From Squalus acanthias (taxonomy: Eukaryota): a DNA stretch of 64,000 nucleotides. The notes beneath the pieces were generated by a model that saw nothing but the letters and a program-made list of their open reading frames with translations, made no database searches and was not told the DNA's origin. The stretch's first letter is position 1, and every line of letters begins with the position of its first letter. Positions 8,486 to 62,680 of this stretch are shown here, in pieces. The stretch lies in contig CM059437.1 in the NCBI GenBank assembly GCA_030390025.1, positions 54,622,001 to 54,686,000 of the forward strand, read 5' to 3'. A program made the position numbers and the translations under genes.

Positions 8486-8537
8486 TTTAAAGAGAATTTA
8501 ATAATGGTATAACAAATTAATACATAAGATTCTTGAA

Positions 8538-9265: not shown

Positions 9266-10159
9266 GGGGTAAAAATTCACTTGGTTGCGCCACCTGTTAG
9301 CGCCTTAAGAGGGCGCTAATGAGGCGCAAAGCCACTAACGCCCGGGCGCAGCGATGTTTGCGCCGCTCGAGAACTTAACTTGAGATTGTGCGGCGGCGCT
9401 AAAACTTACCGCTGCGACCACCTGCGCGCGCAGATTGTGACGTCATTCCATGGTGCAACGCCCTTGGGGCGCCCCGTAGCGGAAATTGAGTGGCGCCCCC
9501 TGCCTTACCGCCTGGCGCTTCCAATGACCAGAAGACTGGAACGCTATCAATCGCTGTGGGGCTGGGGGGGGCGCTATTTAAAGGGGGCCTCTTCCTGTCT
9601 TTTATTGTTGGTGGCATTTTTGAACTACGCATTCTGAGAGAGAGAGGGAGAGACTTCTGGAGAGATTCAACGTTGTGTGAAGGAGTTTTTGGGTACTGAG
9701 CAGCACTTTGCAGGTTCATTTTGATTTGCCATTCCTTGTATCGATTTAGCAGAGTCCGTGGGAGCTGCACTCTGAGCTCTTCGCCTGGTGCTCTCCATTG
9801 TTCTTTCCAGCACATTTGATGTGCAAGTCTCTCCAGGTCGAGATTCAAGGCAGCAATGAACAGGATGTGGATGGAAAGCAAGATTAACCATCCCCTTTAA
9901 GAACTGGCCCGTGCCATTGTGAGTGTGTTCCATTGCTGACTGACATTACATGAGCTTCGCCAGCGCTCCGAGTTAGCGCCTCACTGCTCGGCCTTTGCGC
10001 CTTAAGAGAGGTGTGCAGCGCCTGCTTTAGCGCTCCACTCACCTCCCGGGGCGGTAAAAGTGAAGTTTCCTGTCAGTGCCGATAATTAGCGCCAGGCGCT
10101 AATATTTGCGTCCGGACGATATTTGCGCCCCAAATGGGGCGCGACCTAATTTCTACCCC
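9266..10159 (+). mobile_element. Non-autonomous Harbinger element in the J-C intron, 894 bp
   Basis: TIRs GGGGTAAAAATT / AATTTCTACCCC. ATA TSD at 9263-9265 and 10160-10162. Empty site GAGTCATGGAATCTC at ~49926-49940. Both ends match 22467-26662. Confidence 0.95.
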
Positions 10160-15750: not shown

Positions 15751-16749
15751 CAGTGGATTAGCACCAATCTCCAACCACAGCTCTGCAAACTTGATGAGAA
15801 TTTCCTGTAAAGCTACTCTCGACAAATAGTTCCCTATATTTCCTGTTTTAAAAACACATTTTTGCCGTAAACTTTCCTCGCGATGAGTTATCTCTTGTTA
15901 TCCAATTGAAGAAATATTTTCCACACTGGTGGTCTGGAGAGTGTATAATATAATAGGTTAACAGCTTGGTGTGGTAAAGGTTATTAAGGAATGGTTAGTA
16001 TAGAGTGCTACAGTCAAAGCAGAAATTTAGAAAACGCAGTGTTACATTGGGCGTGGTTCGGCAGAAGGCTTGGAACATCCGATGTAAAATTATGAAAAAT
16101 AATCCAGAAGTCAGTAGTAATATCTGTCAATTATGGATTTATTCTGTGACATGGAGTCGAATACATGTTATAGATTAGGTTGTAGGGATTCTTTAGGCTA
16201 AGCTAATTAGCAGGAGGTGTCACTAAAAGGCAATTAGGAAGCATCAAAATGATTATATAAAGAAATATGGTTAGGTTGGAAGACAAATTGTCTGGTTTAA
16301 GTTGTTATTATTCTGGTAACGGTGTGGCCTTTTAGCCACACAATTGCCTTATCTGTACTATTCAGAAAGGAAATGAACTGTCACATTCCAGTGAGTATGA
16401 AGTATATGTGGTGCAACATTGTCACCTACTGGTATAGTAGCATATGACACACAAGGTTCACACTTAGAATTAACGGCATAGACCGCCTGTTATACACAGG
16501 TCCACTGAAGGCAATATAACTGGATGCCGAGCAGAGAGTATAACGGGCGGCCAAATACCATACCGCCGGTTCTGCGCTAACGCCCAATAACTTCGAATCT
16601 ATTGGGGTAGATATTCGATACAGCAGGCTATAACTATCCGTGACATATCATTTGGCTCATACTGCAGAGCCCCTCCCAATCAGCCCAGGTAGCGAAAGTG
16701 TGCCTTTAAGGCCCAGATGGCTCTTCCAATGACCAGTCGAGTAGAACAA

Positions 16750-17350
16750 TTTGCCTCCTCGTAGTGCTCCTCTGCTGTTCTCGGGCAATTCTTACTGGGA
16801 GAATAGTACATTGCGTCCGGGGTAGGCTTTCTCACCCAGAAGCCATTTATGTGATTTTCTTCCCCGATGAGGTCAGCGTGTTGGTACGAAGGCTTCTCTG
16901 CATGTGGTCACACATAATAGGTACATTCAGGGATTGGAAGCCGCTCCTGTCGATGTAGTTGAGAGGTTGTGGTGTGGGAATGCGCACAGCAGCATGCTTG
17001 TCCTCGATTGCAGCCTTGCAAAAACAAGCAACCCAGTAAAAGTAGGTGGCCATATCTTGCTGTTACCTTGCTATGTTGCCAAAGGTGATAAATTTGCCAG
17101 CTCTCCTGCAAAGCGCGTAAACAACATAATGCGTGCACAGCCGCTTCTACTGCATGGATGCTGTTGCAGAGATTGCTGACGGGTGCCTAGAATTACGCTG
17201 TGACACAAAGTTTGAGGGCGGTTATTACCTGCATAGCCACAGAGAACGCCTTGTGGGTAGATGAGCATGGCTACAGCTCGTCCTGCGGTAGGTAACAGAG
17301 CTACCCTCTTACCTCGTTGGTAATTTATGCGCATCTTATTCACAACTCCT
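16750..17350 (-). pseudogene. Fossil PIF/Harbinger DDE transposase fragment
   Basis: GELANLSPLAT and AAIEDKHAAVRIP...YIDRSGFQSLNVPIMCDH align with GDLANISQFAV and GTIDCTHVALRAP...RNRKGFHSLNVQLVCDH of ORF 22977-24137. Frameshifted. Paralog at ~55390-55990. Confidence 0.75.
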
Positions 17351-18564
17351 CATAAAAGTCCTCATATGGAGTAATAACTGATAGCCTGCATCCTTCTTAA
17401 AAGCTGCCTAAATCTTCTTTGCTCCATCATGTGCTGCTCCTGCTCCTCCATGATGTAAGTATACAGAGGTATGTCTATAGGGAATGTCATCCACAGGAGC
17501 CTGCTACTGAGAGAGTTCCTTCGTCGTGTATCATAGAGAATAACACAAACAGAAGTTTTAATTCATGATAATTAGTTAATGGAGGGAGTTTCCCTTCTGC
17601 AGTTTACACCCATGCTCATTATGTGTTCGCAGGAAATAAACCAGGATATCGCCAATGGTGACCACTGGTTAATGATCTGAAGCTTTAAAAACGACATCAG
17701 GGGGTTTCACAAATAGGGCTTGAAATTATTTAACTTTTCGGCAATTACTCCCAATTTCACCCTCTCACCGGTTCGCTGTGCAGCTGAAGGGTCTGACTAG
17801 CGATCCTTGTGACAGTCCCATTCAATGGGGTTTCTCGAATTGGAACTGAATGCACCCTAGTCTATTTTTGCAGAATTGCAAAATAAATGGCCAAAATTAG
17901 TGCTTAGAGGCACGTATTGTTTTAGGAATTAGTGCAGGAATGCTTAACATTTTCCTCTGTGCGCAGAACAGTTGATCTCATTTCAGGACATTTTAAGAAC
18001 GCTACAACAAGCCCCAGCGCCCCCGCTCCAGCAAAGGGAAAAGAGGGCGAAATTACTACTTCCTATCTTTATTCTCTGCTGGAAGTGCTCACCTACGGAT
18101 GGGCGGCGAGCTTAAGGCCAAATTCGCCTTTGACGCCACAATGGGAAAGCCCGTATGGTCTCAGGAAGGAATCTTGGCCACAGTGACAGGAAAGAGTATA
18201 CAGGTCTAGAGGAGAAATTTGTTAGAAAAAAGGTCGGGGAAAATAGAAACAATTGTACAGGATGCTAAAGGAAAATGACGCGCAGCAGAGCTGAAGCAAA
18301 ACGAAACAAAAAGAGGGAGAACAAAAATTGACCAATATACAATGGAAAGTCAAATTTCGAAAATATACTTTCACAAGTCCAGGCAGAAAAGATCCAAATC
18401 CCTTATCTATCCGAGCATTAGAGCAATTCTTTATGTTCTTTATCTTAACGAGGACACATTAATACACTAGTAATGAGGACAAGGGATCCTCCTTAAATTA
18501 TGGTTCCAGTGGACTACAAGTTTGAAACTGCTAAGAGGAAGACCGAGCCACAACCTGTCACATT

Positions 18565-18825
18565 AACACCTCCTCTTGCCTTGATTATCTCTTAATGTCT
18601 CTCAATGTCTCTTGATCTCTCCTGCTTTCCATCCCACCACTGACCTTCCCTTTTGTTCTTTCATCCCCTCCCCCTTTTCCCAGCTTTATACTTGCTTTAA
18701 ATCTATTTCATTTCCTGCTTTTTTCCAGTTCTGACGAAAGGTCTTCGACCTGCAACGTTAACTCTGTTTCTCTCTCCACGGATGCTGCCTGGCCTGCTGA
18801 CTTTTTCCAGCGTTTTCTGTTGTTA
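18565..18825 (+). mobile_element. Penelope-like element terminal fragment with a degenerate minimal hammerhead ribozyme
   Basis: Pyrimidine-rich stretch, then CTGACGA-A-AGGTC-TTC-GACCT-GCAA-CGTTAAC (18731-18762) and GATGCTGCCTGGCCTGCTGA. Paralog at ~57205-57465. Confidence 0.65.
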
Positions 18826-19584
18826 TTAAAAGAGGAAGACCGATCTAGGGTAGCAATGCAATTCATTGATAACCAGGGCGACTGTCTTAGGAGAATGAAT
18901 GAGGCAAATTTTGTTCTCGAATTTTGCACTTTGGGGATCGCAGTCCGAAATTACATTCATTTTTTTCTGAAAACATAATCTACGGTGAACCACGCGGGTA
19001 GGAATTACTTTAGTCACTGGGTAATGCAATATCCCAAATATTTCCTTGGGTTTTCCTGGTGAAGTTACAAGCATAGGAGACAAGCTTTGATTTAGAAGGT
19101 TTAGGATTTCACTATCAATACTGAATGGGGGAATCTTTGCAAATGCATTTATAATGTCCCACAAATCGTGATCAAATTAATTCTTAATCTCTGCTGCCAT
19201 CAAGTTGACTGAGCGACACCCGGTGTGAACTCGAAGTTAAACTCAGAGCCATCAATGTTACACTGCACAGCCCTAGAACTAGATGAAACACGGCTCACTT
19301 TTGCATAAAAAGTGTTGGACACGTTCAATACAGACAGGACGAGGCTCAATAAGGTTGGATTCGTCCGACAGTAGCAGGCCGTTCAGCCTCTACATTCTGT
19401 TTCGCCATTAAATTAGATCATGGCTGATCTGCACCTCAACTCAATTTTCCCGCCTTTGTTCCCTATCCGTTACCTCACAATAGTCTGGTGTTCTCAATCT
19501 TGAACATTTTAATTGACCGAGCGACGCCGGCTTTTAAGGGGTGCGAATTCCAGACAACCACGCCGTTTCTGTGAAAAATGCTTC

Positions 19585-20270
19585 CAGCTTTCACGCACAA
19601 ATCGTTGAAGGTGGCAGGACAGGCTGAGAAAGCGGTTAAAAAAGCATACCGGATACTGGACTTCATAAATAGAGGCATAGAGTACAAAAGCAAGGAAATT
19701 ATGATGAACCTTTATAAAACACTGGTTCAGCCTCAACTGGAGTATTGTGTCCAATTCTGGGCACCGCACGTTAGGAAGGATGTGAAGGCCTTAGAGAGGG
19801 TGCAGAAAAGATTCATGAGAATGATTCCAGGGATGAGGGACTTCAGTCACGTGGATAGACTACAGAAGCTGGGGTTGTTCTCCTTAGAGCCGAGAAGGTT
19901 GAGAGGAGATTTGATAGAGGTATTCAAAATCATAAGGGGTCCAGCCAGAGTAGACAGAGAGAAACTGTTCCCATTGGCAGAAGGGTCGAGAACCAGAGGA
20001 CACAGATCTAAAATGATTGGCAAAAGAATCAAAGGTGTCCTGAGGAAAAAAAAAATTATGCAGCGAATGATTAGGATCTGGAATGCGCTGCCTGAGAGGG
20101 CGGTGGAGGCAGATTCAATCGTGCCTTTCAAACGGGAATTGGATAAGTAGCAGAAGCAAAAAAAACTGCAGGGCTACCGGGAAAGGGCAGGGAGTGGGAC
20201 TTGGTGAAGTGCTCTTGCAGAGAGTGGCACGGGCTCGCGGGCTTTCTGTGCTGTAACCATTCTATGATTC
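19585..20270 (+). mobile_element. CR1 ORF2 3' fragment
   Basis: ORF 19578-20150 LYKTLVQPQLEYCVQFW...WNALPE, with TTCTATGATTCT tail. Nested in older minus-strand CR1 remnants (~19370-21720). Paralog at ~58225-58930. Confidence 0.88.
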
Positions 20271-20952
20271 TGAATGGTCTAGCTCTAATTTTAAGATTAT
20301 ACCGTCTTGCCTTGGCTTGCCCCATGAGAGAAAATAGTTTATCTGTATCTTCCTATCGAATTGTATAATCATTTTAAATATCTCGATTTAATCACCCTTC
20401 AACCTTCTAAACTCAAGAGAATATAAGCCAAGTTTATGCAACCTGTCCGCATAATTTCACCCTTTAAGCCCTGGTATTATTTTGGTGAATCTGTGCTCTA
20501 CCTCTTGCAAGAGTAATATATATTTCCTGGAGTTCAGTGTATAATTTAAACTCAGCACTCCAGATGGGGTCTGCCGAAGGATCTATAGAACTGAATCATC
20601 ACTTCCGCACTTCTGACTTCCAGCCCCCTTGAGATAAAGCCCATCATTCCATTAACCTTTTTGATTACCTTTTGTGCCTTGTACCTTTTAGTGATTTGTG
20701 TACATGGACACCTAAATCCCTTTGCCCCTAGTCTCTCACTATTAAGAAAATATTCTAATTTGTCTTTCTTAGATTCAAAGTGGATGACGTTCCCACATTG
20801 AAATCCATCTGCCATAGTTTTGCCCACTCAATCTATTTATGTCATTTTTAACTTCCTCGTCCCATCCACACAACTGTGCCTCCTAAATTAGTGTCCACTA
20901 CAAACTTGGATATGCAGCTCTATGTTCCTTGATCTAAGTCATTTTATATATG

Positions 20953-21176
20953 CTGACACGCCATCGTGACTTGGAAATATATCGCCGATCCTTCATCATC
21001 GCTGGGTCAAAATCCTGGAACTCCCTTCCTAACAGGACTGCGGGAGTACCTTCACCACATGGACTGCAGCGGTTCAAGAAGGCAGCTCACCACCACCTTC
21101 TCAACGGAAACTAGAGATGGGCAATAAATGCTGGCCTTTCCAGCGACACCCACATCCCATGAACGAATAAAAAAAT
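20953..21176 (+). mobile_element. Short LINE 3'-end fragment with A-rich tail
   Basis: WNSLP-type motif (TGGAACTCCCTTCCT), TTCAAGAAGGCAGCTCACCACCACCTTCTC, ending AATAAAAAAA. Paralog at ~59613-59836. Confidence 0.6.
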
Positions 21177-22774
21177 GCTGAGGCCCCAATATACATCCCT
21201 GGGGAATGCCATTTGTCTTTTCCCGCCCATCAGTACACGAAACATTTATACCTACTCTATATCTCCTACCTCCCAATCAATTACCAATTAGTGGCTACCT
21301 TATATTTATGTCTCCCTGTTCTCGACTCATCCACAAATGGAAACACTTTATCCACGTTCCCCCTATCTAACTCCTTCATAATTTTAAAGACCTCAATCAA
21401 GTCTCCTTTTAGCATCCTCTTTCAGAGATAAGCGACCAGCCTGTATATTTTTTCCTGAAAGTTGCATCCTCCAAATTCTGTTAACATCCTTGAAACTCTT
21501 TTCTGAATTCTCTCCAGTGCTTCAATGTCTTTTTTCGAGCATGGAGACCAGAATACTGCAAAGTACTCCAAGTGTGTTCTCACCTAAATTCTATATAAAT
21601 GTAACATTACCTTTCTGCTTTTGTATTCTATTCTCTTAGAAAGATCCCCAGTACTTTGATTGCACCATTTATGCACATAACAACTTGTGCTGCTCCTTTT
21701 AGCGATTTATGCATCTGCAGTCCCAATCAGTCTGAACAAAGTAGATTATGCACTAAAAGTATACCGAGTTTGTGATTAGTGTTAAGGTGAATTTACGGAG
21801 TGCGATTCTTATCTGAGCGTCAGCGAATTTGTAGTTGAGTTGCTGCTAATATCGCTTGCTTCAATATAACTATTATTCAGCAATAATTAACAGAATCGAG
21901 TCGTTACTAAAGAAAGCATGCAATGGCAGAAATTGTACCGTGGTAGGTACGAGGTATCTAAAAGGAAGGCGGTCACAGAGTTTCTCCTGAATTTGTGTAA
22001 CCAGATGATTTAGAAAAATTATAACACGTGCTTTGAATTGTTCACATAAACACACGAACGCAAGGTTCAGCTTCTTGCCCACACGGAGGAAGTCAGTCAA
22101 GTGCGGTTTAAACAGAGTGCTGCGAGTTGGGTGAGTCAGGGAGTCAGGAGAAGACAGAAGACAGAGCGACGAAGGACAGAGTGGAGACCCTTTCCACCTC
22201 CACCACGCCTGCAGCTACAAGCTACAACTACAGCAACTTCTACTGCTGAGGTGCCATAGGGGAGAGAGGAGAGGGGAGAGGAAAGGAGACCAATAACAAC
22301 AACAGAGGGAAGCAATTCCATCACTGCCTCCCCAACTGGTCTCCATTACGAGAGAGGGAGAGAGGGGAAACAAAACCAACACCTGCTTGGAAGGAGGGAG
22401 AGCGAGCCATCGAGGAGAATAACATCTAGAGGTGGGTGTTAAAAAGGGCACTCTCCAAAAGACTTTGGGGTAAAAATTCACTTGGTTGCGCCTCCCGTTA
22501 GCGCCTTAAGAGGGCGCTAATGGGGCGTTAAGCCGCTAACGCCCGGGCGCAGCGCTGTTTGCGCCGCTCGAGAACTTAACTTGAGATTGTGTGGCGGCGC
22601 TAAAACTTACCGCTGCGACCACCTGCGCGCGCAGATTGTGACGTCATTCCATGGTGCAACGCCCTTGGGGCGCCCCGGAGCGGAAATTGAGTGGCGCCCC
22701 CTGCCTTACCGCCTGGCGCATCCAACGACCGGAAGACTGGAACGTTATCAATCGGTGTGGGGCTGGGGGGGCGC

Positions 22775-22782
22775 TATTTAAA
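22775..22782 (+). promoter_or_regulatory. Candidate TATA box (TATTTAAA) of the Harbinger transposase promoter
   Basis: ~200 nt upstream of ATG 22977, preceded by a G-rich box. Retained in all five non-autonomous copies. Confidence 0.5.
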
Positions 22783-22976
22783 GGGGGCCTCTTCCTGTCT
22801 TTTTCTGTGGTCGACATTTATGCACCACTCGTTCTGAGAGAGAGAGAGAGATTCGGAGAGAGAGAGAGAGAGACTTCTACATTGACTCAACATTTGTGAG
22901 GTAGTTTTGCCTAGTTCATCCTAACTTTGTTGCTACTTTAGTTGCTGTACCTCATTACTTTTCTGGCAAAGAGAAT

Positions 22977-24137
22977 ATGGGGGCTGCAATGATTGGGGGC
23001 GACGTCCTGCTCCAGCTGAATCGGAGGATAGTGAGACGCAGACAGAGAGTGGCAATAATGGCCAGACGGAGGAGGGCCATCAGGCGCATGTACAGGAGAG
23101 CTTACCCTCCCAGGGTATATCGTGAACAGCTCTCCTACATCCATATGTCCGAGGAGCTGTGTTTGCGAAGGCTGCGATTCAGCAAGGAGGTGGTCACTGA
23201 GCTCTGCCACCTGCTGCAGCCAGATCTGCAGCCTCAGCTGAGGTCCAGGACGTCTCTGTCGGTGGCAGTGAAGGTCACAGTGGCTTTGAACTTCTACGCC
23301 ACTGGCTCATTCCAAGCTGCTGTTGGGGACCTCGCCAATATCTCCCAGTTTGCGGTGCATCGCTGCATCCGGCAGGTCACCAATGCCCTCTTCAGAAGGA
23401 GACGAGACTTCATCTATTTCCCTATGACCCCAGACAAGCAGCGTGACCGTGCTCTGGGCTTTGCGAGGGTAGCGGGCTTCCCCATGGTGCAGGGCACCAT
23501 TGACTGCACGCATGTGGCTTTGCGTGCTCCGCGAGAGAATGCAGAGGAATTCAGGAACAGAAAGGGGTTCCATTCCTTGAATGTGCAGTTGGTCTGTGAC
23601 CACAGACAGGTGATACTCGCTGTCAATGCCCACTATCCGGGCAGCTGCCATGCTGCTTTCATCCTGCGCCAGACTACTGTGGCAGAAGTTTTCGAGGCAC
23701 CGCATCAGCCAGTTGGTTGGCTTCTCGGGGACAAGGGGTACGCATTGAGCACCTGGCTGATGACACCGCTCCGTACGCCAAACACCCCTGCTGAGCTGCG
23801 GTACAATGAAAGCCATCAAGCAACCAGGAACATTATTGAGCGCACAATCGGCGTGCTGAAACAACGGTTCCGCTGTCTGGACCATTCCGGAGGAGCCCTG
23901 CAGTACTCGCCTGAGCAAGTTTCGAACTTCGTAGTCGTGTGCTGCATGTTGCACAACATGGCAATCCTCAGGACCCAGCCAATGCCACCAGGCCTTGTAG
24001 CACCACCAGAGGAGGAGGAGGAAGAGGAGGAAGAGGACGAGGACGATGATCATCAGCAGCACCAAGGCAGGAGGGCGGCCCACAATGGTCAAACTGCAAG
24101 GGCCGTCCGTCAACGACTAATAGCAAGCCGCTTCTAG
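22977..24137 (+). CDS. Harbinger DDE transposase (HARBI1-like), 386 aa, open frame
   Basis: RLRFSKE, ALNFYATGSFQ, GTIDCTH, NRKGFHSLNVQLVCD, PGSCH, LLGDKGY, YNESHQATRNIIERTIGVLKQRFRCL, CCMLHN and an acidic tail. Confidence 0.96.
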   Translation: MGAAMIGGDVLLQLNRRIVRRRQRVAIMARRRRAIRRMYRRAYPPRVYREQLSYIHMSEELCLRRLRFSKEVVTELCHLLQPDLQPQLRSRTSLSVAVKVTVALNFYATGSFQAAVGDLANISQFAVHRCIRQVTNALFRRRRDFIYFPMTPDKQRDRALGFARVAGFPMVQGTIDCTHVALRAPRENAEEFRNRKGFHSLNVQLVCDHRQVILAVNAHYPGSCHAAFILRQTTVAEVFEAPHQPVGWLLGDKGYALSTWLMTPLRTPNTPAELRYNESHQATRNIIERTIGVLKQRFRCLDHSGGALQYSPEQVSNFVVVCCMLHNMAILRTQPMPPGLVAPPEEEEEEEEEDEDDDHQQHQGRRAAHNGQTARAVRQRLIASRF

Positions 24138-24431
24138 GGCCCCTGCCATTGCTACAAACACTAATCAACCCAGCACGCAACCCCTAAGCCGGCCAAGGCA
24201 CCAATAATTCCAACCACCAGCCATGTATATTTTGAATACAGAAACTTATTTATTTTACAAACTCTGTGTGTGTCAATTCCTCATGACAAACTCATAGAAA
24301 TAAACACAAAAAAACAGTCAATAACATAACTGGTTCTCACAACCTGGAGATAATGTCCAAAACACTAAACAAAAGTTGGACCATGAACCTCGGCCTTTAA
24401 TAAAAAAATGACCAGCATTTTGGCACACCTC

Positions 24432-25429
24432 CTACTTTTTGCCCTTCGAGGGTGATCTCCTTCCCTTGTGCACTTCCCCCCTTCTAACCCTACTGCTCCT
24501 CCGTAATGGGACCTCAGTGGCTGCAGCAAGGCTGGTGGAAGGCTGCTGCTCGTCAGACCCTGACACTGCAGATGCCCCTGAAGGACGGCCTCGACCACTT
24601 CTGGGCCTGGAGGGCCCGGCTGCAGACTGCACCAACTCTGCATGGGCGGCAGCAGTCTGTCCTACAGGCGGTGGCAAGTGCAGTGGAGAAGTGACAGTGT
24701 TGGCAGCAGGAATGCTGTCATCGTGAGAGAGGACAGCAACTCCCTGCTCGCCCGACACACTGGCACTCCCACGGGGCAGCACTTCAGCATCTGGAGCAAT
24801 TTGCCGGAGAACAGATTGCTGGCCTGCTGCGGCGCGGTGACAGCCCCGGGGACATGTGCACGAACCATCGAGGATGGCAGCAGTCAGTGCTCGCGTGGCC
24901 TCAATCTGAGTCTGCATGAGAGCAGTCTCAGATGGGTTCCTGGCAGCCAGTGACTGAATTGCAGCACTAAGCTTTAGTGTGGCATCCGCCTGTGCTACAG
25001 CGAAGTGCTTCACACTCCTTGCCAGTGATTCAATGCATTCTGGCACCCTTCCCACTGCACCCATGAGCTCAGTGTGCATGCCCACCGCCTGGCTGTTCAT
25101 TTCTGCAATCAGCCGCTCCTCCTCTGCGTCCATTGCAGTAGGAGTGTCTGGCATACTCTCCCTCTGGGGAGAAGGCCCCCGTTCTTCCCTACCCCCCCCC
25201 CCACCCCCCCCCCCCCCATGGCGTTGCTGCAGCCCGCTGGGTCCTGGAGCTTCACCATCATCAGCCCCTTCCCCCCTGCTCCCCTCCGGGGAAGGCGTGT
25301 TCCCAGTGTGGGCATGGGCTTCCTCGGGAGAGGATGGCACTGATGCTCCGGCTTCCTCTTCCTCCTCAGCTGCAGCATCACTCCCAGTGGCAACTTCAGG
25401 GCCCGTCTCCTCAGCTGGTGAATCACCAT
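24432..25429 (-). CDS. Harbinger Myb/SANT partner gene, exon 3 (low-complexity and coiled-coil C-terminus)
   Basis: Acceptor CCTGCTTTCAG at 25440-25430. Phase-1 entry gives DGDSPAEETGPEV..., continuous with ORF 24432-25340 and ending in a basic tail RRSSRVRR...KGKK. Confidence 0.7.
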
Positions 25430-25588
25430 CTGAAAGCAGGGAGGTACAAGAGTGGCTTTAGCGTGAGGACAGGGTGGCAGTAAGGGAGGAATAAGTGCAG
25501 CGAGTTAGCAAGTTGGATTGAAAGTGTCAAAGGCTGGTATTGTGAGGGACAAGTGGAAGGACAGAGGACAAAAAGGTGATGACCTTAC

Positions 25589-25729
25589 CATTGCTGTCCA
25601 CAACGGGGTCGGCGTCTCCAGTGGCGACGGGACCGTGTGGACGCGCTCCTCCAGATCGCTGAGGGGTTGCAGCTGAAGCCGCCCTCCACCCGTCCGTTGC
25701 TGCTGTCTCCGATTATGAGCCAGCTTAGC
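25589..25729 (-). CDS. Harbinger Myb/SANT partner gene, exon 2 (apparent frameshift)
   Basis: Acceptor TTTTCTTGCAG at 25740-25730, AKLAHNRRQQQRTGGG...LSDLEERV, donor GTAAGG at 25588-25583. Confidence 0.75.
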
Positions 25730-25760
25730 CTGCAAGAAAAAGGACAGCATCTGAGTAAAT

Positions 25761-25927
25761 ATACAGCCATGGTCTTGCCTGATGTGCCTCCCATAGGTGA
25801 ATAGCCCTTACTGTATGCAGCCATGCTCTTGCCTGATGTGCCTCCCATAGGTGAATAACCCTTACTGTATACAGCCATGGTCTTGCCTGATGTGCCTCCC
25901 ATAGGTGAATAGCCCTTACTGTATGCA
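25761..25927. repeat. Three tandem 54-bp repeats in intron 1 of the Myb/SANT gene
   Basis: Unit ATACAGCCATGGTCTTGCCTGATGTGCCTCCCATAGGTGAATAGCCCTTACTGT, repeated three times with few differences. Confidence 0.92.
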
Positions 25928-26067
25928 AAGTGTGGAATGTGTGTGTGTGTTTGATGAAAGGGCCATAGGTGTTGGATGAGTGTTGTGCATTGGGATTTTA
26001 AGACCCTCTGGCCATAGAGTGAGGTTGAGATGGAGGGATGGAGAGGTATTGAGAAAAAGCCACTCAC

Positions 26068-26304
26068 CCTGACGACCCGAGTGAGGTCGTTGAACTTTTT
26101 GCGGCATTGAACATGGGTCCTGGGCACCATGCTCCTGGAGGAGACGCTCTGAGCCACCTCCCTCCACACTCTTCTGAACTCGCGTGGCAAAGGCCTCCTG
26201 CCACTCTCCGGGAACAGCATGCATCGTCTGCGCTCCACTGCGTCAACCAGAGCATCCAAGGCCCGCTCGGTGAAGCGATGAGCGCGTTCTCTCACCCTCT
26301 CCAG
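26068..26304 (-). CDS. Harbinger Myb/SANT-like DNA-binding domain, exon 1
   Basis: RAHRFTERALDALVDAV...VWREVAQSVSS...RTHVQCRKKFNDL is a trihelix pattern. Donor GTGAGT at 26067-26062. The presumed start codon position holds CTG (26304-26302). Confidence 0.88.
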
Positions 26305-27291
26305 GCTTGGCAGCAAAATGGATTACAGGTCTCTCCAGGCTGAGATTCAAGGCTGCAATGAGCAGGGTGTGGCTGGGGAGCAAGTGCCCCCCCCCCGCTT
26401 TAAGAAGTGTCCGGCGCCATTGTGGCTGTGTTCCCTCGCTAACTGGCAGCAGCTGCGCTGCGCTCGTGCGCTGAGTTAGCGCCTCACTCCTTGGCCTTTG
26501 CGCCTTAAGAGAGGTGTGCAGCGCCTAATTTAGCGCTCCACTCACCTCCCGGGGCGGTAAAAGTGAAGTTTCCTGTCAGTGCTGATAATTAGCGCCAGGC
26601 GCTAATATTTGCGTCCGGACGATATTTGCGCCCCAAATGGGGCGCGACCTAATTTCTACCCCTTTGTATTTGAGGTGGGGGGAGGAAAGAAGAAGGAGAA
26701 GACCGGGATAACAAGGGGTGTGTGTTGGTGTGTGTGGCTCTTGCTAATAACTAGGCCGCACACACCATCAACAAGCACCCCTTGCCTATTGCTTCACCTG
26801 GGACAGCTGGAGCTGCCCAGGCAAAGTCATCAATCTATTTCCCCATCTATAACATCGTTAAGACCTGGTGGTGGACTGAGCCTGGGCATGTCCAGCTTTA
26901 TTTTCCCAGGTGAAGACATCTTCTCCCCCCACCAGAAGAACATCAACAAAGACTATAATTAACATCGGAGAGTGCCCCCCCCCCTGGAAGCACCCACCCA
27001 CCCACTATCCTGAGTGGCGAACAGGCCCCTGCGGCCTCCCTCCTTCCTTCCCCCTATCTCTCTCTCTCTCTCTGACTCTCTCTCCAACGAGGCACCTCTA
27101 ATTTTATTAATTCCCCAATTGAGCAGAGAGGAGAAGGCCCCTCTCCCAATTCCAATCATCAAAGGGAGAGGTGTGCCTTCATTTTTAAAACAACCCCCTC
27201 TGCTCGGGAAAAGACAAAAAAAAACAAGGCCATTTCAACCATCACCCGGCCTGTGACTTGGGGTGAGTGCAGCCCTTTATACCACCTCAGT

Positions 27292-28761
27292 ATGACGAGC
27301 ACATCTTCGCCGGCGACGGGGCAAGCAAGGTCGTACGCGGGTGTGGCAGCCACGGCCACAGCTGGTCCCGCTGCTTCTACTGCCCCGTCGCCTTTCAGGC
27401 TATTGACCAAAAAGCTGGGGGTGAAGAGCTACACTCACCCCAACATGACCATAGAGGCTTGCGTCAAAGCCATGGCTGGGGTAGTCAACCCCTCAGCCAT
27501 CATAGCGGCCTCTAAAATGTACGGGAAGGCTGTGTTCTTCCTGGGGTCGGAGCGGGCGGTGTCCCTGGCCGTCACCAAGGGGCTCACCGTGGGCGGGACC
27601 TTCCTGCTGGTGGATCCGCTCGAGTCCACCGCGCAGCGAATCATACTATCAAACGTCCCGTCCTTTGTTCCGGTTGAGCTCCTCCTCCCCCACCTACGTC
27701 AACTGGGGGAGGTGAGGTCGGTGATTAATCCGATCCCGCTCGGCTGCAGGGAGGCCAGCCTCCGGCACGTCTTCTCCTTCCGGCGCCAGCTGTTTATCCA
27801 GCTGGTGCGGGAGGAGGACACGGAGGGCGCGTTTAACGTTCAACACGAGGGGACCGCCTACCGCGTCTTCTGGACGTCGGATGGTGTGCGGTGCCACGCC
27901 TGTAAGGTGGTGGGGCACATAAGAAAGAACTGCCCCGCTTTCAAGGCCGCCAAAACATCTGAGGCGGCCAAGGCTGGCGCTGCTGCCGCTCCTCCGCCTG
28001 TTTCTGTCCGCGCGTCCGCGACACCCGATGTGCGGTCGACGCCGGAGGTCAACGCGGTCGCGGACTCCGGCAGAGGGGAGAGGGAGCGTCCGATCGGAAA
28101 GAAGGCGCGGAGGAAAAGTAAACACCTTCAGGCGGGACCCCTAGATGTACACGACGATTTACCCGAGCTTACGCCCCCGTTCCTTGCGCGGGTGGTGGCG
28201 GAGTTCGAGAGTGCGAGGGGCCTCGTGCCCGGGCCTGCGGCCGCAACCGCCGAGACGGCAAAATCGAGACCTGCGGCCGTGACCGGGCCCGGGTCCCCCG
28301 AGCAAACCAATCGACAGGGGGGAGCGGAGGTGGAGGCCTCGGTACACATGGAGGTCTCCCAACCTCCGTGTCCCACCACACTGAAAAGGAGACGTGACGC
28401 CCTGGAGGAGGAGGAGGACCATGAGGAACAGAGTCCCCCCTTGCAAGGGGAGTCGTCGCTCGCCGCGGGGGCTGCGCCCACCCCCCCCACCAACACTGTC
28501 ACCGACATCCGGCAGGGGTCGCCTGTCCCCCAGGAGGGTACGACAGATGAGTCTGTCCAGCCTGTGCCACCGGGGGATGGGGAAGAGACTCTGCTCATGG
28601 GGTGGGCCGCGGAACTACCCGCGGAGGGAAATTATACCGAACCGTTGTTTCTCGCCAGGTCGAGCATCCTGGGGACAGAGGCGGGCAAGGCCGATGAGGC
28701 TGAGCCCGCCGTATATGGTCAGGACTACTCCCAATGCTGCTCGACCTGCTGGAGCAATTAA
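27292..28761 (+). CDS. Tx1-type LINE ORF1 (RRM-like region plus CCHC zinc knuckle); C-terminus frameshifted, continuing to ~29400
   Basis: AASKMYGKAVFFL, RIILSNVPSFV, HVFSFRRQLFI and CHACKVVGHIRKNC (CX2CX4HX4C). Confidence 0.85.
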   Translation: MTSTSSPATGQARSYAGVAATATAGPAASTAPSPFRLLTKKLGVKSYTHPNMTIEACVKAMAGVVNPSAIIAASKMYGKAVFFLGSERAVSLAVTKGLTVGGTFLLVDPLESTAQRIILSNVPSFVPVELLLPHLRQLGEVRSVINPIPLGCREASLRHVFSFRRQLFIQLVREEDTEGAFNVQHEGTAYRVFWTSDGVRCHACKVVGHIRKNCPAFKAAKTSEAAKAGAAAAPPPVSVRASATPDVRSTPEVNAVADSGRGERERPIGKKARRKSKHLQAGPLDVHDDLPELTPPFLARVVAEFESARGLVPGPAAATAETAKSRPAAVTGPGSPEQTNRQGGAEVEASVHMEVSQPPCPTTLKRRRDALEEEEDHEEQSPPLQGESSLAAGAAPTPPTNTVTDIRQGSPVPQEGTTDESVQPVPPGDGEETLLMGWAAELPAEGNYTEPLFLARSSILGTEAGKADEAEPAVYGQDYSQCCSTCWSN

Positions 28762-29863
28762 ATCAAGGTCCCCGGTCCGCTGGGTCGGAGGGTGGTGGCG
28801 GTGAAGGGGAAGGCCCCCTGACTCCATCTCCGACGCTGGCGCCGGGTTGTTGGGGGAAGTAGCATTAATGTACTCCCCGGTTTCTCCGTGCACCCCGCTG
28901 CCGGGGGCAGAGGGGGGCCCCGAGCCGCCGCCGCTTCCTGACCCGGCGCCTCTGGAGGTGCCCAGGGAGGACTCCTCTGCCGCCGATCCTGGGGGTGGGA
29001 GCGGGGCAGAGGTAGGGCCAGCTGATGGCGACACCCCGGAGGAGGACGGGGACCCGGCGGAGGACACTGAGGAAGACATTTACTCCATCGCCAGCGAGGC
29101 GGCGGATACCCTCGTGACTCCTCCGGGTCCCCCCACATCCCCGTTGTGGAACTCCGGGACTTTGTGGCCATGGGCCAGGGTCGCCAGGATATTATCCGGC
29201 TGGCCATTGATAATTGGTCGGATCTGGCGCTGCTCGTTTGCTCCGTCCGCGCCGCCGTCAAAACCATGGGCGAGGACGGGGGCGTGGGCCCAGCCAAGCG
29301 GCGTCGGATCCGGAAGTTCCTCGCTGGGCTTAGAAGGGAGTGGCGGTTGACTAGCGGCCGCGCTCCCTCCTCCCGTTTGAGTAAGGTAGAGGTTGCACTA
29401 TGCTCTTGTCATGAAGATAACCATAGCCAGCCTCAACATCAACGGCAGCAGAGAGGCACGCCGTAGATTTAATAACTTCTCGGCCCTTCGGGAGTGCGGT
29501 TTCAACAGAATGCTGCGAGTTGGGTGAGTCAGGGAGTTAGGTGAGGAGTGGAGAGAGGAGCTCCCTTGCTTCGCCTTTGTTTTTCCTAACTTTTCAACCT
29601 GTAGGAATTGGTTCTTACTGTACACCAAGTAAAGAGTCCAAGAGCGGGAGCAGTCAAACGACCACAACTGAGAAACTTCTTAAGTAACGTCACATCCAGG
29701 GAAGGAGCTGATTGGTAAGTAGGACCTGGTGAGTATTTCTACAGTCCAGTCGTTAAAGTCAAAGTAAGGTCTCTTGTTTAGAGTAAGTAGTGTTTAAAGG
29801 AAAGTAAGCTCCCTAGTGTATGTAATATTTTTTAATTTAAAGGGTGTAAATTAAGGGTGGGAC

Positions 29864-30815
29864 ATGGCAGGGCAGCTTGGCTGCGTGGAGTGCTCCTCCT
29901 GTGCGATGTGGGAAGTCAGGGACACTTTTGGTGCCCAAGACGAACACATGTGCAGGAAGTGTCTCCAGCTGCAGCTACTCGAAATCCACGTTTCGGAGCT
30001 GGAGCTGTGGCTGGAGTCACTGTGGAGCATCCGCGAAGCTGAGATCTTCGTGGATAGCACGTTTAATGAGGTGGTCAAACTAGAGGTAAAGAGTGCAGGC
30101 AGGCAGGAAATGGGTGAACGCCAGACAGAGTAAAAGAACTGGGAAGGTAGTGCAGGAGTCCCCTGGGTCCATCTCACTCTCCGACAGATTTTCCATCTTG
30201 ACTACGGCTGGGGGAGATGGTTTCTCAGGGGAATGCAGCAAGAGCCAAGTCCATGGCACTATGAGTGGCTCAGCTGCACAGGAGGTGAGGAAAAGGAGTG
30301 GGAGAGCAATAGTGATAGGGGATTCTATCGTAACGGGAACAGATAGACGTTTCTGTGGCCGCAGACGTGACTCCAGCATGGTATGTTGCCTCCCTGGAGC
30401 CAGGGTCAAGGATGTCACTGAACGGCTGCAGGGCATTCTGAAGGGGGAGGGCGAAGAGTCAGAGGTCGTGGTTCACATTGGTACCAACTACATGGGTAGA
30501 AACAGGGATGAGGTCCTGCAACAAGAATTTAGGGAGCTGGGTAGCAGATTAAAAAGCAGGATCTCAAAGGTTGTAATCCCTGGATTACTCCCGGTGCCAC
30601 GTGCTAGTGAGTATAGGAATAGGAGGATAGAGCAGATGAATGCGTGACTAAAGAGCTGGTGCAGGAGAGAGGGCTTTAGTTTCCTGGATCACTGGGTCTG
30701 CTTCTGGGGAAGGTGGGACCTGTACAAGTCGGACGGGTTGCACCTGAACCGGAACGGGACCAACATACTTGCGGGGAGGTTTGCTAGTACTGTTGTGGGG
30801 GGAGGGTTAAACTAA
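29864..30815 (+). pseudogene. CR1 ORF1 (Cys-rich zinc finger/leucine zipper plus SGNH esterase), with frameshift and stop
   Basis: CSSCAMWE...CRKCLQLQLL, IVIGDSIV, CLPGARVKDV, VHIGTN and DGLHLN. Frame change at ~30120 and TGA at 30645. Confidence 0.88.
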
Positions 30816-30919
30816 CTTGGCAGAGGGATGAGATACGGAGTGAAGCTATAGTTGGGGGTGATGCACAGACAAATATAGAGGAAAAAACAAGTCAGCCTGG
30901 AAGGCAGAGCGAATATGTA

Positions 30920-33900
30920 ATGGCACAAGGGAGTATGGCAAGGCTGGATGGCATTTATTTTAATGCAAGGAGTCTTGCGAGTAAGGCAGATGAATTTAAG
31001 GTGTTGATGAACACATGGGAGTATGATATTGTTGCTATCACAGAGACATGGTTGAGGGACGGGCAGGACTGGCAGCTCAATATTCCGGGGTATAGAATCT
31101 TCAGGCGTGACAGAGGGGGTGTAAAAGAGGGGAGGGTGTCGCAATATTAATCAAGGAGTCAATTACTACTGTAAGGAGTGATGATATCTTAGCAGGTTCC
31201 TCTAATGAGGCCATATGGGTAGAACTTAACAACAAAAAGGGGGTAAGCATAGTGCTGGGAGTGTACTATAGGTCCCCAAACACTCAGGGGAAGATAGAGG
31301 AACAGATATGTAGGCAAATCTCAGAGAAGTTTAGAAATAATAGGGTAATAATAGTTGGGAATTTCAACTGTCCCAATATTAACTGGGATAGTCAGAGTGT
31401 GAAAGGCTTAGAGGGTGCGGAATTCTTAAAGTGCATCCAGGAGAGCTTTCTGAGCCAGCATGTAGAATGTCCGACAAGAGAGGGGGGGGTGGTACTGGAC
31501 CTAATTCCAGGGAATGTAGCCGGGCAAGTGGCAGAAGTAGGAGAGCATTTTGGTGACAGTGACCACAATTCGGTGAGATTTAAGGTAGTCATGGAAAAGG
31601 ACAAAGATGGACCGGAAATAAAGGTTCTAAATTGGGGGAAGGCCGATTTTAATATGATAAGGCAGGATCTGGCCAAAGTGGACTGGGATCAGCTACTTGC
31701 AGGAAAATCCACATCAGAGCAGTGGGAATCTTTCAGAAAGGAAATAGAGAGAGTACAACGCCAACATGTTCCCATAAAGGTCAAGGGTGGAACCAACAAA
31801 CCCAGGGAAACCTGGATGTCAAAGGAATATACAAGAATGGATGAGGGAAAAAAGGGAGGCTTTTGGCAGATACAAACGACTAAAAGCAGTGGAAGCCCTA
31901 GAGGAATATAGAAAGTGCAGGGGGGGTACTTCAAAAAGAAATTGGAGAGCGAAGAGGGGGCATGAAAAAACATTGGCGGGCAACATAAAGGAAAATCCCA
32001 AGGTGTTTTATAAGTATATTAAGGGAAAGAGGATAACCAGGGAAAGAGTAGGGCCCATTAGGGACCAAAGTGGCAATCTGTGTGTAGAGCCGGAAGATGT
32101 AGGTGAGGATCTAAATGAATATTTTGCATCTGTGTTCACTATGGTGAAGGACGATGTAGGCATAGAAATCAGGCAGGGGGATTGTGATATACTTGAACAA
32201 ATTAGCATTGAGAAGGAGGTAGTACTTGCGGTTTTAGCGGACTTAAAAGTGGATAAACCCCAGGCCCTGACGAGATGTATCCCAGGCTCCTGTGTGAGGC
32301 AAGGGAGGAGATTGCAGGGGCTCTGACACAAATTTTCAGACGCACTCTGGCCACAGGGGAGGTGCCAGAGGAGTGGAGGACAGCTAACGTAGTACCATTG
32401 TTCAAGAAGGGTAGTAGGGATAAACCAGGGAATTACAAGCCAGTGAGCCTAACATCAGTGGTGGGGAAATTATTGGAAACAATTCTGAGGGACAGAATCA
32501 GTCTCCACTTGGAGCGGCAAGGATTAATCAAGGATAGTCAGCATGGCTTTGTCAGGGGGAGATCATGTCTAACTAATTTGATTGAATTTTTCGAGGGGGT
32601 GACTCGGTGCGTGGATGAGGGTAGTACAGTTGATGTGGTCGACATGGACTTCAGTAAGGCTTTTGACAAAGTCCCACATGGAAGACTGGTCAAGAAGATA
32701 AGAGCCCATGGGATCCAGGGCAATTTGGCACATTGGATCCAAAATTGGCTTCGTGGCAGGAGGCAGAGGGTGATGGTCGAAGGTTGTTTTTGTGACTGGA
32801 AGCCTGTGTCCAGTGGTGTAGCGCAGGGATCGGTGCTGGGTCCTTTGCTGTTTGTAGTGTACATTAATGATTTAGATATGAATGTAGGAGGTATGATCAG
32901 TAAGTTTGCAGATGACACGAAAATTAGTGGTGTGGTAAATAGCGAGGAAGGAAGCCTCAGGCTACAAGACGATAGAGACGGGTTGGTCAGATGGGCAGAA
33001 CAGTGGCAAATGGAATTTAACCCTAAAAAGTGTGAGGTGATGCATTTTGGGAGGACTAACAAGGCAAGGGAATACACAATGAATGGTAGGACGCTAGGAA
33101 GTACAGAGGATCAGTGGGACCTTGGTGTGCATGTACATAGATCCCTGAAGGCAGCAGGCCAGGCAGATAAGGTGGTTAAAAAGACATATGAGATACTTGC
33201 CTTTGTAGGGAGAAATTAATTCACTCCAATCTGTGTTGATAGGTAAAAGCAAACAGTTTATTAATGTTCAGAGATCTTTGGGAGAAGCATCATAGACCTT
33301 ACCCGGCCTAGTGACCACGGCTTCTCGACCTCCCGTTGTCAGTTACAACCTTTTATTTAAGAATTATCCAATCACATTGTTAAAAATATCACATGATTAC
33401 AATTATGTCAATTCAAACTAAACCGGTTAATTCGTTATATTTCTTATCTTTGTCAGCTACAAACTAAAAACAATTATCCAATTACGTAGATATGTTGCAA
33501 GCATGTTTGTTGGGAATCACATTCTATGTTTTGCCTGGGTGCTGGGTCTAAGCTCATTCTCACATTTGTCCATTGTATTTCTGTACAGATGCGCATTGTA
33601 TTCTGTCCTTGAATGCTGCTAGGCATCCAATCCTTATCAATCCACCTGGTTGCTTCTTATTCTATTTCGGACATAACTTCCATTCCCTTTACAGCTAAGA
33701 GAGGTTTAATTTAATTTAATTTATCTTGAGTTCAAATTAACCCTTTCACCTTCATTAGCTAAGGCATAGAATGTAAGAGCAGGGAGGTTATGATGGAGCT
33801 GTACAAAACGCTAGTTAGGCAACAGCTGGAATACTGTGTGCAATTCTGGTCGCCACACTATAGGAGGGATGTCATTGCATTGGAGAAGGTGCAGAGGAGA

Positions 33901-34293
33901 TTCACCAGGATGTTACCTGGGCTGGAGCGCTTCAGCTATGATGAGAGACTGGACAGGCTGGGGTTGTTTTCCTTCGAGCAGAGAAGGCTGAGGGGGGACC
34001 TGACTGAGGTGTACAAAATTATGAGGGGCATAGATAGGGGAGATAGAAAGGAACTTTTCCCATTAGTCGAGGGGTCGATCACCAGGGGGCATAGTTTCAA
34101 GGTAAGGGGCAGGAGGTTTAGATGGGATTTGAGGAAAATATTTTTCACCCAGAGGGTGGTTGGAATCTGGAACTCACTGCCTGAAAGGGTGGTAGAGGCA
34201 GGAGCCCTCATAACATTCAAGAAGCATTTAGATGAGCACTTGAAACGCCATACCATACAAGGCTACGGACCAAGTGCTGGAAAATGGGATTAG
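30920..34293 (+). pseudogene. CR1 ORF2 (APE endonuclease plus reverse transcriptase), frameshifted
   Basis: YFNARSL, ITETWL, GNFNCPNINW, SDHN, DFSKAFDKVPH, QGSVLGPLLF and KFADDT. Confidence 0.92.
33204..33748 (-). mobile_element. Solo LTR, 545 bp
   Basis: TG...CA termini with short imperfect inverted ends (TGTAGGG / CCCTTTCA). 4-bp TSD CCTT at 33200-33203 and 33749-33752, whose removal restores CR1 ORF2. Minus-strand AATAAA at 33257-33262 and a TATA-like motif at ~33351-33360. Confidence 0.85.
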
Positions 34294-34373
34294 AATAAAC
34301 GGGGCTTGATGGCCGGCGCGGACACGATGGGCCGAAGGGCCTCTTTCTGCGCTGTATAACTGTATAACTCTAT

Positions 34374-35267: not shown

Positions 35268-35278
35268 TATGACTCTAA

Positions 35279-36179: not shown

Positions 36180-36190
36180 TATGACTCTAA

Positions 36191-60764: not shown

Positions 60765-61235
60765 AGTGCGGTTTAAACAGAGTGCTGCGAGTTGGGTGAG
60801 TCAGGGAGTCTGAACTGTTTGCTAAAATCAAACTTTTGTTTGTTTCACATTTACTGTTACTGTTTACTGTTTAAAATCTAAATTTCCCAGCTTTAAGCAG
60901 GGTTATAAAGGGATAAACAAGGCCTACAATTCAGAGCAGCTGAAGGCAGTTAATTAGGGGAACTTGATTAAACTGGTTCTCCTGTAGTAGGGCAGGGCCC
61001 AGCAAGCTCCTTTGTTTCAAGGCCTATAAAAACAGGCTTTGAAGTGCGATTTTGCACTGAGTGCGGTTTCAACAGAATGCTGAGAGTTGGGTGAGTCAGG
61101 GAGTCTTGTGAGGTGTGGAAGGAGGAGCTCCTTTGCTTCGCCTTTGATGGAGAGACACAGGCTGCGAGATTCTCAGCTCAGCTCAGCTCAGCGAATGAGT
61201 GTGGTTTAACCAGAGTGCTGTGAGTTGGGTGGAGG
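60765..61235 (+). repeat. Three copies of the LINE 5' module AGTGCGGTTTMAACAGARTGCTGCGAGTTGGGT(GAGTCAGGGAGT), with a TATA box before the second
   Basis: Copies start at 60766, 61061 and 61199. The same motif is at 22101 and 29494. TATAAAAA at 61025-61032. Confidence 0.85.
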
Positions 61236-61516
61236 AGCAGAAGGAGACAGCCCGAGCCACGAAGGGCAGAGTGGAGACCCTTTCCACCTCCACCACGCCT
61301 GTTGCTACTACTACCACTACTACTGCTGAGGTGCCAGAAGGGAGAGAGAGGAGAGGAGAGAGAGGAGAGGAGACCAAAGAAACAACAACAACAGAAGGAA
61401 TCCATTACATCATTGCCTCCCCAACTGGTCTCCATTACAGGAGAGGGAGAGAGGGGAGAAGAAAACCAAGACCAACATCTGCTTGGAAGGAGGGAGAGCC
61501 ATTGAGAAGAAAACAA

Positions 61517-61807
61517 CATAGAAAACATAGAAACATAGAATCTAGGAGCAGGAGTAGGCCATTCGGCCCGTCGTGCCTGCTCCACCATTCAATACGATCA
61601 TGGCTGATCATTCAAATCCAGTACCCTGTCCCTGCTTTAATCCCCACAGTACACATATCCCACCCTAGCCCTGTAACCCCACGTATTTAATTCCCCCTAA
61701 CATATCCCATCCTATCCCCATAACCCCACATATTTAATCCCCCCCCCTAACACTAAGGGTCAATTTATCATAGCCAAATTAACCTAACCCGCACATTTGT
61801 GGACCAT
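61517..61807 (-). mobile_element. B-specific short retroposon with a CR1-type 3' tail (probably a truncated SINE or CR1 chimera)
   Basis: (CATAGAAA)n tail plus a CR1 3' UTR, followed by non-CR1 body. CAT at both junctions. Absent at ~22421-22428 in A. Confidence 0.7.
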
Positions 61808-62515
61808 CTATAGGTGGGTGTTAAAAAGGGCACTCTCCAAAAGACTTTGTAGTTTAGGTGGGGGGAGGAAAGAAGGAGAAGGCCAGAACAGCAAGGGGTG
61901 TGTGTGAGTGTGTGTGGCACTTGTTAACAACTAGGCCACACACACCATCAACAAGCACCCCTTGCCTATGGCTTGACCTGGGACAGCTGGAGCTGCCCAG
62001 GCGAAGTCATCTACCTATTTCCCAATCTACAACATCGTTAAGACCTGGTGGTTGACTGAGCATGGGCATCTCCAGCTTTATTTTCCCAGGTGAAGACATC
62101 TTTTCCCCCCACCAGAAGAACGGAAAAACAACAAAGACTATAGTTAACATTGGAGAGTGCCCCCCTCCCCACCCCCTGTAAGCACCCACCCACCCAGTAT
62201 CCTGAGTAACGAAATAGCCCCTGCGGCCTCCATCCTTCCCCCCACCCCCCCCCCCCCCACCTCTCTCTCTCTGCCTCTCTCTCTGCCTCTCTCTCTCTAA
62301 CGAGGCACCTCAATCCTTTATCTATTAATTACCCATTTGAGCAGAGGGGAGAAGGCCCCTCTCCCAATTCCAATCACCAAAGGGAGAGGTGTGCCTTCAT
62401 TTTTAAAACAACCCCCTCTGCTCAGGGAAGAGACAAAAAAACAACTACCTAGGCCATTTCAACCATCACCTGGCCTGTGACTTGAGGTGAGTGTAGCCCT
62501 TTATAACACCTCATT

Positions 62516-62680
62516 ATGGCGAGCACATCATTGCCGGTGATGGGGCCAGCAAGGTCGTACGCGGGTGTGGCAGCCACGGCCACAGCCAGTCCCACTGCTT
62601 CTGCTGCCCCGTCGCCTTTCAGTTTACTGACAAAAAAGCTAGGGGTGGAGAGCCACACTCACCCCAACATGACCATAGAG
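62516..62680 (+). pseudogene. Tx1 ORF1 5' fragment (copy B), cut by a hAT end
   Basis: MASTSLPVMGPARSYAGVAATA...HPNMTIE matches 27292-27456. Similarity stops at 62680. Confidence 0.85.

Follow-up and report, generated by a model that had tools for sequence, protein, structure and literature searches.

A CR1 leader that likely marks a predicted transcription start also heads some copies of a probable Tx1-type LINE

Several Tx1 families are known to target other transposons: Tx1L inserts in Tx1D, Tx1-Mar in Mariner-N4_AMi, Tx1-8_Crp and Tx1-4_AMi in LTR elements, and Tx1-9_AMi in Harbinger, a family being classed as target-specific when >20% of its copies are flanked by the target (PMC4494074). 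Repeats at LINE 5' ends are also on record. In mouse L1, how the monomer units re-duplicate is stated to be unclear (PMC6454616), some ORF1(-) elements of the CR1 group carry 1-5 subunits of 100-500 bp at their 5' ends (PMC13343379), and the CR1 promoters of turtle and pufferfish contain a 32-bp direct repeat (PMC2734521). An esterase ORF1 (PMC13343379) and an octamer microsatellite at the 3' tail (PMC4316615) are described as features of CR1 membership, and knowledge of the 5' ends of CR1 is poor, since the majority of copies are truncated (PMC4316615). Tx1 families that target transposable elements and 5' repeats in CR1-group elements are therefore already known; we did not find their combination in print, and the openly accessible article texts searched yielded no account of a CR1 leader that serves a Tx1 family as its target, or of a CR1 head that is both TATA-driven and spliced.

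The locus described here lies in a 64,000-nt stretch of DNA from Squalus acanthias (the window), in which the initial annotation had placed a 45-nt motif at 22100, 29493, 60765, 61060 and 61198. The first four proved to be full copies of this leader, hereafter L, with no mismatches at 22100, 29493 and 60765 and one at 61060, and none of 100 shuffles gave any match to the pattern. The fifth is partial, with 12 mismatches over all 45 nt and 3 over the first 34, two of these three being CpG C-to-T changes. The copies, together with the promoter-like unit P, are placed as follows:

22100..22144, + strand: L of unit A, from the pattern match, at the same host site as 60765
29493..29537, + strand: L heading a near-full-length CR1 without P, from the pattern match
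60765..60809, + strand: first L of the L-P-L head in unit B, from the pattern match and contigs
60810..61059, + strand: P, a 250-bp promoter-like unit, from the sequence and contig depth
61060..61146, + strand: second L and 42 nt from the start of the CR1 intron/UTR, which breaks off at 61146, from alignment and contigs
61193..61231, + strand: L', consisting of GAATG and nt 1-34 of L with the splice donor broken, heading the Tx1-like copy of unit B

The copies at 22100 and 60765 share their upstream host DNA and lie in the two units (A and B) of a host tandem duplication with a period of ~38.6 kb, 15789-22145 and 54432-60810 being 95.3% identical; they are one host site duplicated, and the five copies of L are therefore not five independent sites. 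In unit A the order is L, Tx1-like leader (interrupted by a Harbinger element), ORF1, 28 codons of ORF2 and then L-CR1, and in unit B it is L, P, L, 42 nt of CR1 UTR, a 46-nt piece (X), GAATG-L' and Tx1-like leader. At their full extent the tandem ~38.6-kb units (419-22145 and 39956-60810) show a host divergence of 3.8-4.7%, and each contains an immunoglobulin gene, which we take to be of the light-chain type, with V and J germline-joined in an open frame. Two of its exons were located:

~49199-49520, - strand: immunoglobulin constant exon, from translation
~52740-53110, - strand: joined V-J exon, from translation

L itself gave no matches in a gathering scan of Rfam or with ARAGORN, which argues that it is no known RNA gene. 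A ribozyme-like structure of L-P-L was discarded, as it folds no better than shuffles (z -0.40). Also set aside as chance were one match to L in metagenome contigs, which lies in a bacterial-looking coding region, and two in genome contigs, both in bacterial MAGs.

P contains a TATA box, TATAAAAA, at 61025-61032, and the A of an Inr-like TGCACT follows 31 nt later at 61056, in agreement with the initial annotation, which had seen GCACT about 31 nt beyond the TATA at 61025. The second L begins at 61060, 4 nt after this predicted start. Contigs from four of 21 listed public runs (X1, X5, X6 and X19) were compared with 60560-61520; X1 and X5 are two large runs of organism A, X6 comes from organism B with 90 records, and X19, which is RNA by guess only, was not taken as expression evidence. 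Three X5 contigs before 61053 represent a diverged P variant which keeps TATAAAA at about the same distance. Before 60765, 20 contigs of X1 and 20 of X5 enter heterogeneous flanks (agreement 0.47 and 0.44), and the consensus lines of both runs end in GACTG, which is the predicted start ACTG plus one extra G, as read from the consensus line and not from per-position counts. This extra G would fit a capped RNA that starts 31 nt after the TATA box and whose cap had been copied, and GAATG-L' in unit B resembles what such a start would leave at the head of a daughter copy. Judged from the sequence, L likely marks the predicted transcription start behind the TATA box. A common variant of P without 55 nt upstream of the TATA box (60964-61020) occurs in X1, X5 and X19, and several P subfamilies therefore exist.

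We then turned to summed contig depth, which is a rough guide and gives no copy number: in X1 and X5 it is ~90 over the host flank, 7,000-8,500 over distal P and 24,000-31,000 over the CR1 UTR. Relative to the host flank this corresponds to 93x and 80x for distal P, and to 268x and 348x for the CR1 UTR, in X1 and X5 respectively, and the 80- to 350-fold step at 60765 identifies that position as the edge of an element. Distal P has 0.18-0.35 of the UTR depth. Behind 61146, nine contigs of X1 and seven of X5 run on like the CR1 UTR at 29580, and a single 264-nt X5 contig, in which L-P stands behind 89 unmatched letters, provides a second locus for the head. L, P and the CR1 UTR all occur in many copies and run into one another, which makes L-P-L a family feature, the head of a CR1 lineage, and not a one-off. 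The match that had been reported between 61061-61146 and the CR1 5' UTR at 29494-29578 holds, 61060-61145 being identical to 29493-29578 at 78/86 positions. The CR1 copy at 29493 has no P and starts directly with L, the form that would be expected of a product of the P start.

The first reading of this arrangement had been a self-renewing array of tandem monomers as in mouse L1, with the TATA of each unit firing into the next and the promoter module common to both LINE clades. The depth of distal P, which makes L-P-L copies common, speaks for it, as does the position of the copies' 5' ends, since elements that start at the predicted start base need an upstream P or an internal promoter; arrays of 1-5 subunits near the 5' UTR have moreover been described in some CR1-group elements (PMC13343379). 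One X1 contig goes from 61107 back to 60837 (depth 37.9), a joint that we rejected as proof of tandem units because it is ambiguous and could equally be a plain L-P variant. The proposed 295-bp unit does start with L (60765-61059), but in the window it is not tandem, being followed by L and CR1 UTR with no second P. True monomers of the form P-L-P were not borne out, with one P only in the window and contigs of 31-mers too short to span L; no P was seen before Tx1, and the two clades have L alone in common, not the monomer. We consider a monomer array serving both clades improbable; for CR1 alone the idea may hold.

The CR1 and its putative leader intron have the following extents:

29493..34373, + strand: CR1 LINE with ORF1 (Cys-rich N-terminus, esterase) and ORF2 (APE and RT), from Pfam and protein relatives
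29524..29604, + strand: 81-nt GT-AG intron in the CR1 5' UTR, with the donor in L, a branch-like CCTAAC, a pyrimidine tract and CTGTAG

In this copy ORF1 runs from 29864, and the element has frameshifts, an insertion at ~33218-33761 and an octamer-like tail, whose 8-nt repeats at 34352-34373 go on between the MITEs that follow. ORF2 contains Exo_endo_phos_2 (E 2e-9) and RVT_1 (E 8e-33), and the esterase of the frameshifted ORF1 is matched by Lipase_GDSL_2 at E 7e-5 and 23.8 bits, under the curated cut-off of 32.9. The best named relatives of the RT come from ray, catshark, birds and turtles, with 65-66% identity to the ray and catshark proteins, which together with the immunoglobulin exons indicates DNA of the shark type. 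Two shark-like CR1 RT proteins, P0011 and P0066, are labelled Klebsiella/Gammaproteobacteria and lie on 1.6-1.9-kb contigs; these bacterial labels probably reflect host contamination in databases. The insertion in ORF2 (33218-33761) is AT-rich and 540 bp long, and the ORF1/ORF2 border (30817-30826) reads GGTTAAACTAA, a slippery-site variant.

The TGAGTCA within L, which had been annotated as an AP-1 site, overlaps a consensus 5' splice donor (GG/GTGAGT), and a single good acceptor follows in the CR1 UTR 81 nt further downstream, at 29604, preceded by CCTAAC and a pyrimidine tract. Two X6 contigs leave L at 60796 (nt 32) in an exact GT-AG join to 29606-29635, the joined letters agreeing at 26/30 positions as against 19/30 for the next best place in the window. 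This join, present in a single run that derives from a different organism and whose label as DNA is a guess, is read here as spliced RNA or a retrotransposed spliced copy; no such join appears among the contigs listed for X1, X5 and X19. From the sequence L is likely the first exon of the CR1, and the AP-1 reading of TGAGTCA has a better-supported rival in a splice donor that is seen joined. The ratio of L to intron depth is 7.5 in X6, another organism with an uncertain library type, and 1.2-1.3 in X1 and X5; the former would fit spliced RNA and was not counted as evidence. Splicing from the first L of an L-P-L head would remove all of P. The CR1 5' UTR (29493-29863) also contains six donor-like GTRAGK motifs in 370 nt, as against 0.86 per kb across the window, which are possibly U1-binding sites protecting the transcript.

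Next, we considered the element behind L in the two units, whose parts are these:

22146..27291, + strand: Tx1-like 5' region of unit A, a purine-rich leader broken by Harbinger, aligning to 61232-62516
22467..26662, no single strand: Harbinger DNA transposon, with DDE_Tnp_4 on the + and Myb/SANT on the - strand, from Pfam and borders
27292..28761, + strand: Tx1-like ORF1, with a CCHC knuckle and ZCCHC3-like RNA-binding look-alikes
29411..29492, + strand: Tx1-like ORF2 stub of 28 codons, starting SLNING, cut by the CR1 5' end
61147..61192, + strand: X, an internal fragment of another high-copy repeat (depth 4222 in X1 and 910 in X5)
61232..62680, + strand: Tx1-like 5' region of unit B with the opening codons of ORF1, from alignment to unit A

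ORF1, which probably continues by frameshift to ~29400, has no match in Pfam at E 0.001; its look-alikes in the atlas are zf-CCHC and RBD_ZCCHC3 at 0.89-0.94, with unnamed relatives at 50-67%. A longer-protein search with ORF1 returned an unnamed sturgeon protein as its sole match, and none of 24 candidates from viral contigs was confirmed. The ORF2 stub, whose SLNING start we take to be APE-like, has no match in the PDB; it meets the CR1 with a 3-nt overlap (GAG), beyond which the Tx1-like element does not resume in the window. On this basis, an ORF1 and 28 ORF2 codons without RT, in an order of CCHC ORF1 and APE that is not exclusive to Tx1, the element behind L is probably a Tx1-type LINE.

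The unit B copy has an inverted CR1-tail insert (~61517-61804) and is cut at 62681. The sequence that cuts its ORF1 there is a DNA-transposon-like end (62681-62800, starting CAGTGGTT), presumably hAT-like. X (46 nt, with CTCAG runs) sits between the CR1 stub and L', and X19 contigs give it other neighbours on both sides; its presence suggests template jumping. In unit A, the Harbinger element is flanked by a 3-bp TTT duplication, unit B having the empty site at 61847-61849, and it is apparently complete, with a 410-aa open transposase frame and a spliced Myb/SANT gene on the opposite strand. Three Harbinger MITEs of ~900 bp are stacked in the octamer tail of the CR1 (34374-37085), with tail repeats between them and TAT/TAA duplications; the same MITE family occurs at 9265-10159, and its ends are common to the autonomous element at 22467-26662. 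Decayed Harbinger-like coding fragments were found by eye on the minus strand at 55400-56200 and 37500-38560, and 37776-37931 matches Harbinger 24490-24645.

Units A and B allow the divergence of their Tx1-like parts to be set against that of the host duplication. The two Tx1-like copies differ at 79/965 non-CpG sites (8.2%) and the host duplication at 221/5915 (3.7%; Fisher p 1e-8); without low-complexity tracts the Tx1-like difference is 48/640 (p 3e-5), and none of 13 host windows of 500 columns exceeds 6.8%, a maximum for which CpG sites were counted as well. This excess points to separate Tx1-like copies that met L at paralogous places. It also bears on another account, in which an old CR1 and a Tx1 element were nested by chance and copied along when the gene cluster duplicated, and unit A arose through loss of the sequence between L repeats. 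Such a history would explain why A resembles B minus 60811-61232, and it suits a window that is a tandem duplication with heavy nesting; the Tx1 parts are, however, twice as diverged as the host duplication, and L-to-Tx1 joints exist beyond these two junctions. We regard it as very unlikely.

Of these further joints, one connects 60799 to 61252 at nt 35 of L, with one linker in both X1 and X5, and another connects 60808 to 61254 at nt 44 (X5). Their linkers are unlike those of A or B, and linkers differ at all four junctions; in addition, an X1 loose-end consensus before 61254 (4 contigs) agrees with the end of L and the leader at 23/27 positions. There are thus at least four distinct L-to-Tx1 junctions, at L nt 34-35 and 44-46. 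Together with the divergence test, they lend independent support to what the initial annotation had offered as its alternative, that L is a target site of the Tx1 element. Among the contigs listed, a non-L sequence ending in GCCC precedes the Tx1 leader in two from X5 and three from X6, and the L-to-Tx1 joints have depths of 10-33 (single-locus) as against 1,455-7,198 for the leader; L-headed copies may therefore be a minority. The initial annotation had named Tx1 copies without the motif as a sign against its claim, and both kinds are present, leader contigs with non-L flanks in X5 and X6 as well as the L junctions. What stands of that claim is a 5' module, L, that occupies a TATA-spaced start and heads some Tx1-like copies; L is not a universal Tx1 module.

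These same joints admit another history, in which a Tx1 element on one occasion ended up behind P-L and its descendants inherited L as a 5' transduction and inserted anywhere, unit A having arisen by ectopic recombination or conversion between the first L of the CR1 and the one that heads a Tx1 copy. In unit B, L' is preceded by neither P nor host flank, starts like the predicted RNA 5' end, and stands behind fragment X, at nt 87 of the CR1 UTR and not at L. The alignment also permits L' to be a full L with a 5-nt loss, and the nt-34 and nt-46 junctions could therefore descend from one ancestral capture. The non-L flanks before the same leader agree with such a history, which has a precedent in captures of the SVA/MAST2 type (PMC4494074). 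It must, however, bring a second, 8.2% diverged Tx1 copy to the paralogous L by recombination, and it must account for four junctions with four different linkers. We consider a single leader capture a doubtful, though conceivable, explanation. No P directly upstream of a Tx1 copy and no Tx1 3' junction was seen in the window or among the contigs listed. Around the whole unit A block, the search for a target-site duplication found only a 5-nt match, and the DNA after the CR1 tail of this unit is rearranged, with an 85% paralog elsewhere in the unit.

Collectively, we moderately favour a model in which a probable Tx1-type LINE sits behind the CR1 leader at several independent loci, having likely inserted there, is transcribed from P and passes L on. 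The TATA box of P would start RNA at ACTG, 4 nt before L, and CR1 progeny would have L at their start and no longer contain the P from which they had been transcribed, the CR1 at 29493 being such a copy. In the transcript, the donor inside L would be spliced to the acceptor at 29604, as seen once in another species. The Tx1-like leaders, which adjoin L at nt 34-46, would have been targeted there, either by endonuclease preference or by pairing of the element's own L with the target L. Copies behind P-L could then become P-driven masters whose daughters start with L, and L' at 61193 would be the 5' end of such a P-driven daughter; to account for the cut Tx1 copies and fragment X, both units would require additional steps by template jump or deletion. 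CR1 might retain P through tandem P units, through an internal promoter that works at the first L, or through a jump of the reverse transcriptase from the first L to the second. In a more speculative version, to which we give little weight, the head would be LTR-like, with L acting as a repeat of the retroviral R type: on arriving at the 5' L of the RNA, the reverse transcriptase would jump to the inner L and recopy P, restoring in every cycle the promoter that transcription leaves behind, splicing would separate a promoter-less mRNA from the unspliced genomic RNA, and a Tx1 family would parasitise L, using it for landing as well as for transcription.

A LINE driven by a TATA box is expected to shed its promoter in each cycle, yet L-P-L heads are common here; given a sharp start and a short terminal repeat, the number of P units per copy would be a direct test of promoter renewal through 5' repeats. 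If the favoured model is true, a LINE leader joins the list of Tx1 targets, and one LINE clade lives off the promoter of another.

The arrangement resembles the transposon-targeting Tx1 families in that a Tx1-type element occupies a fixed spot of a more abundant transposon, and in that transcription from the flanking target and 5' extensions derived from it, proposed for those families, are proposed here too (PMC4494074). It differs in the target, which here is the transcribed leader of a CR1 LINE right behind a TATA start; the available part of that account describes no CR1 target. As in the L1Md monomers of mouse, the 5' repeat units measure 200-300 bp and copies begin at a start site, here a predicted one, in the first unit (PMC6454616). 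Mouse starts lie near YY1/AP-1 sites, that source nowhere using the word TATA, and L1Md has many-monomer arrays in the L1 clade whereas only L-P-L is seen here, in CR1 (PMC6454616). Direct repeats at the LINE 5' end are common to this family and to the CR1-group elements described earlier (PMC13343379, PMC2734521). The CR1 here is ORF1(+), with an esterase, and a TATA unit lies between the copies of its repeat, which contains a splice donor, whereas the descriptions of the other elements, as far as these are available, give no start site, intron or renewal mechanism (PMC13343379, PMC2734521). In human L1, intra-5'UTR splicing and SpIREs likewise involve a donor near the LINE 5' end, an intron in the UTR and a spliced form that would be deprived of promoter sequence (PMC5860796); that splicing yields a dead-end by-product, whereas here the intron is compact, 81 nt with donor, branch-like site and acceptor (PMC5860796). 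Finally, Drosophila HeT-A also starts in a unit upstream of the copied element, its promoter not being fully contained in the RNA (PMC1636488). HeT-A uses the 3' end of a neighbour in telomeric arrays, whereas the unit described here stands at the 5' end of dispersed copies (PMC1636488).
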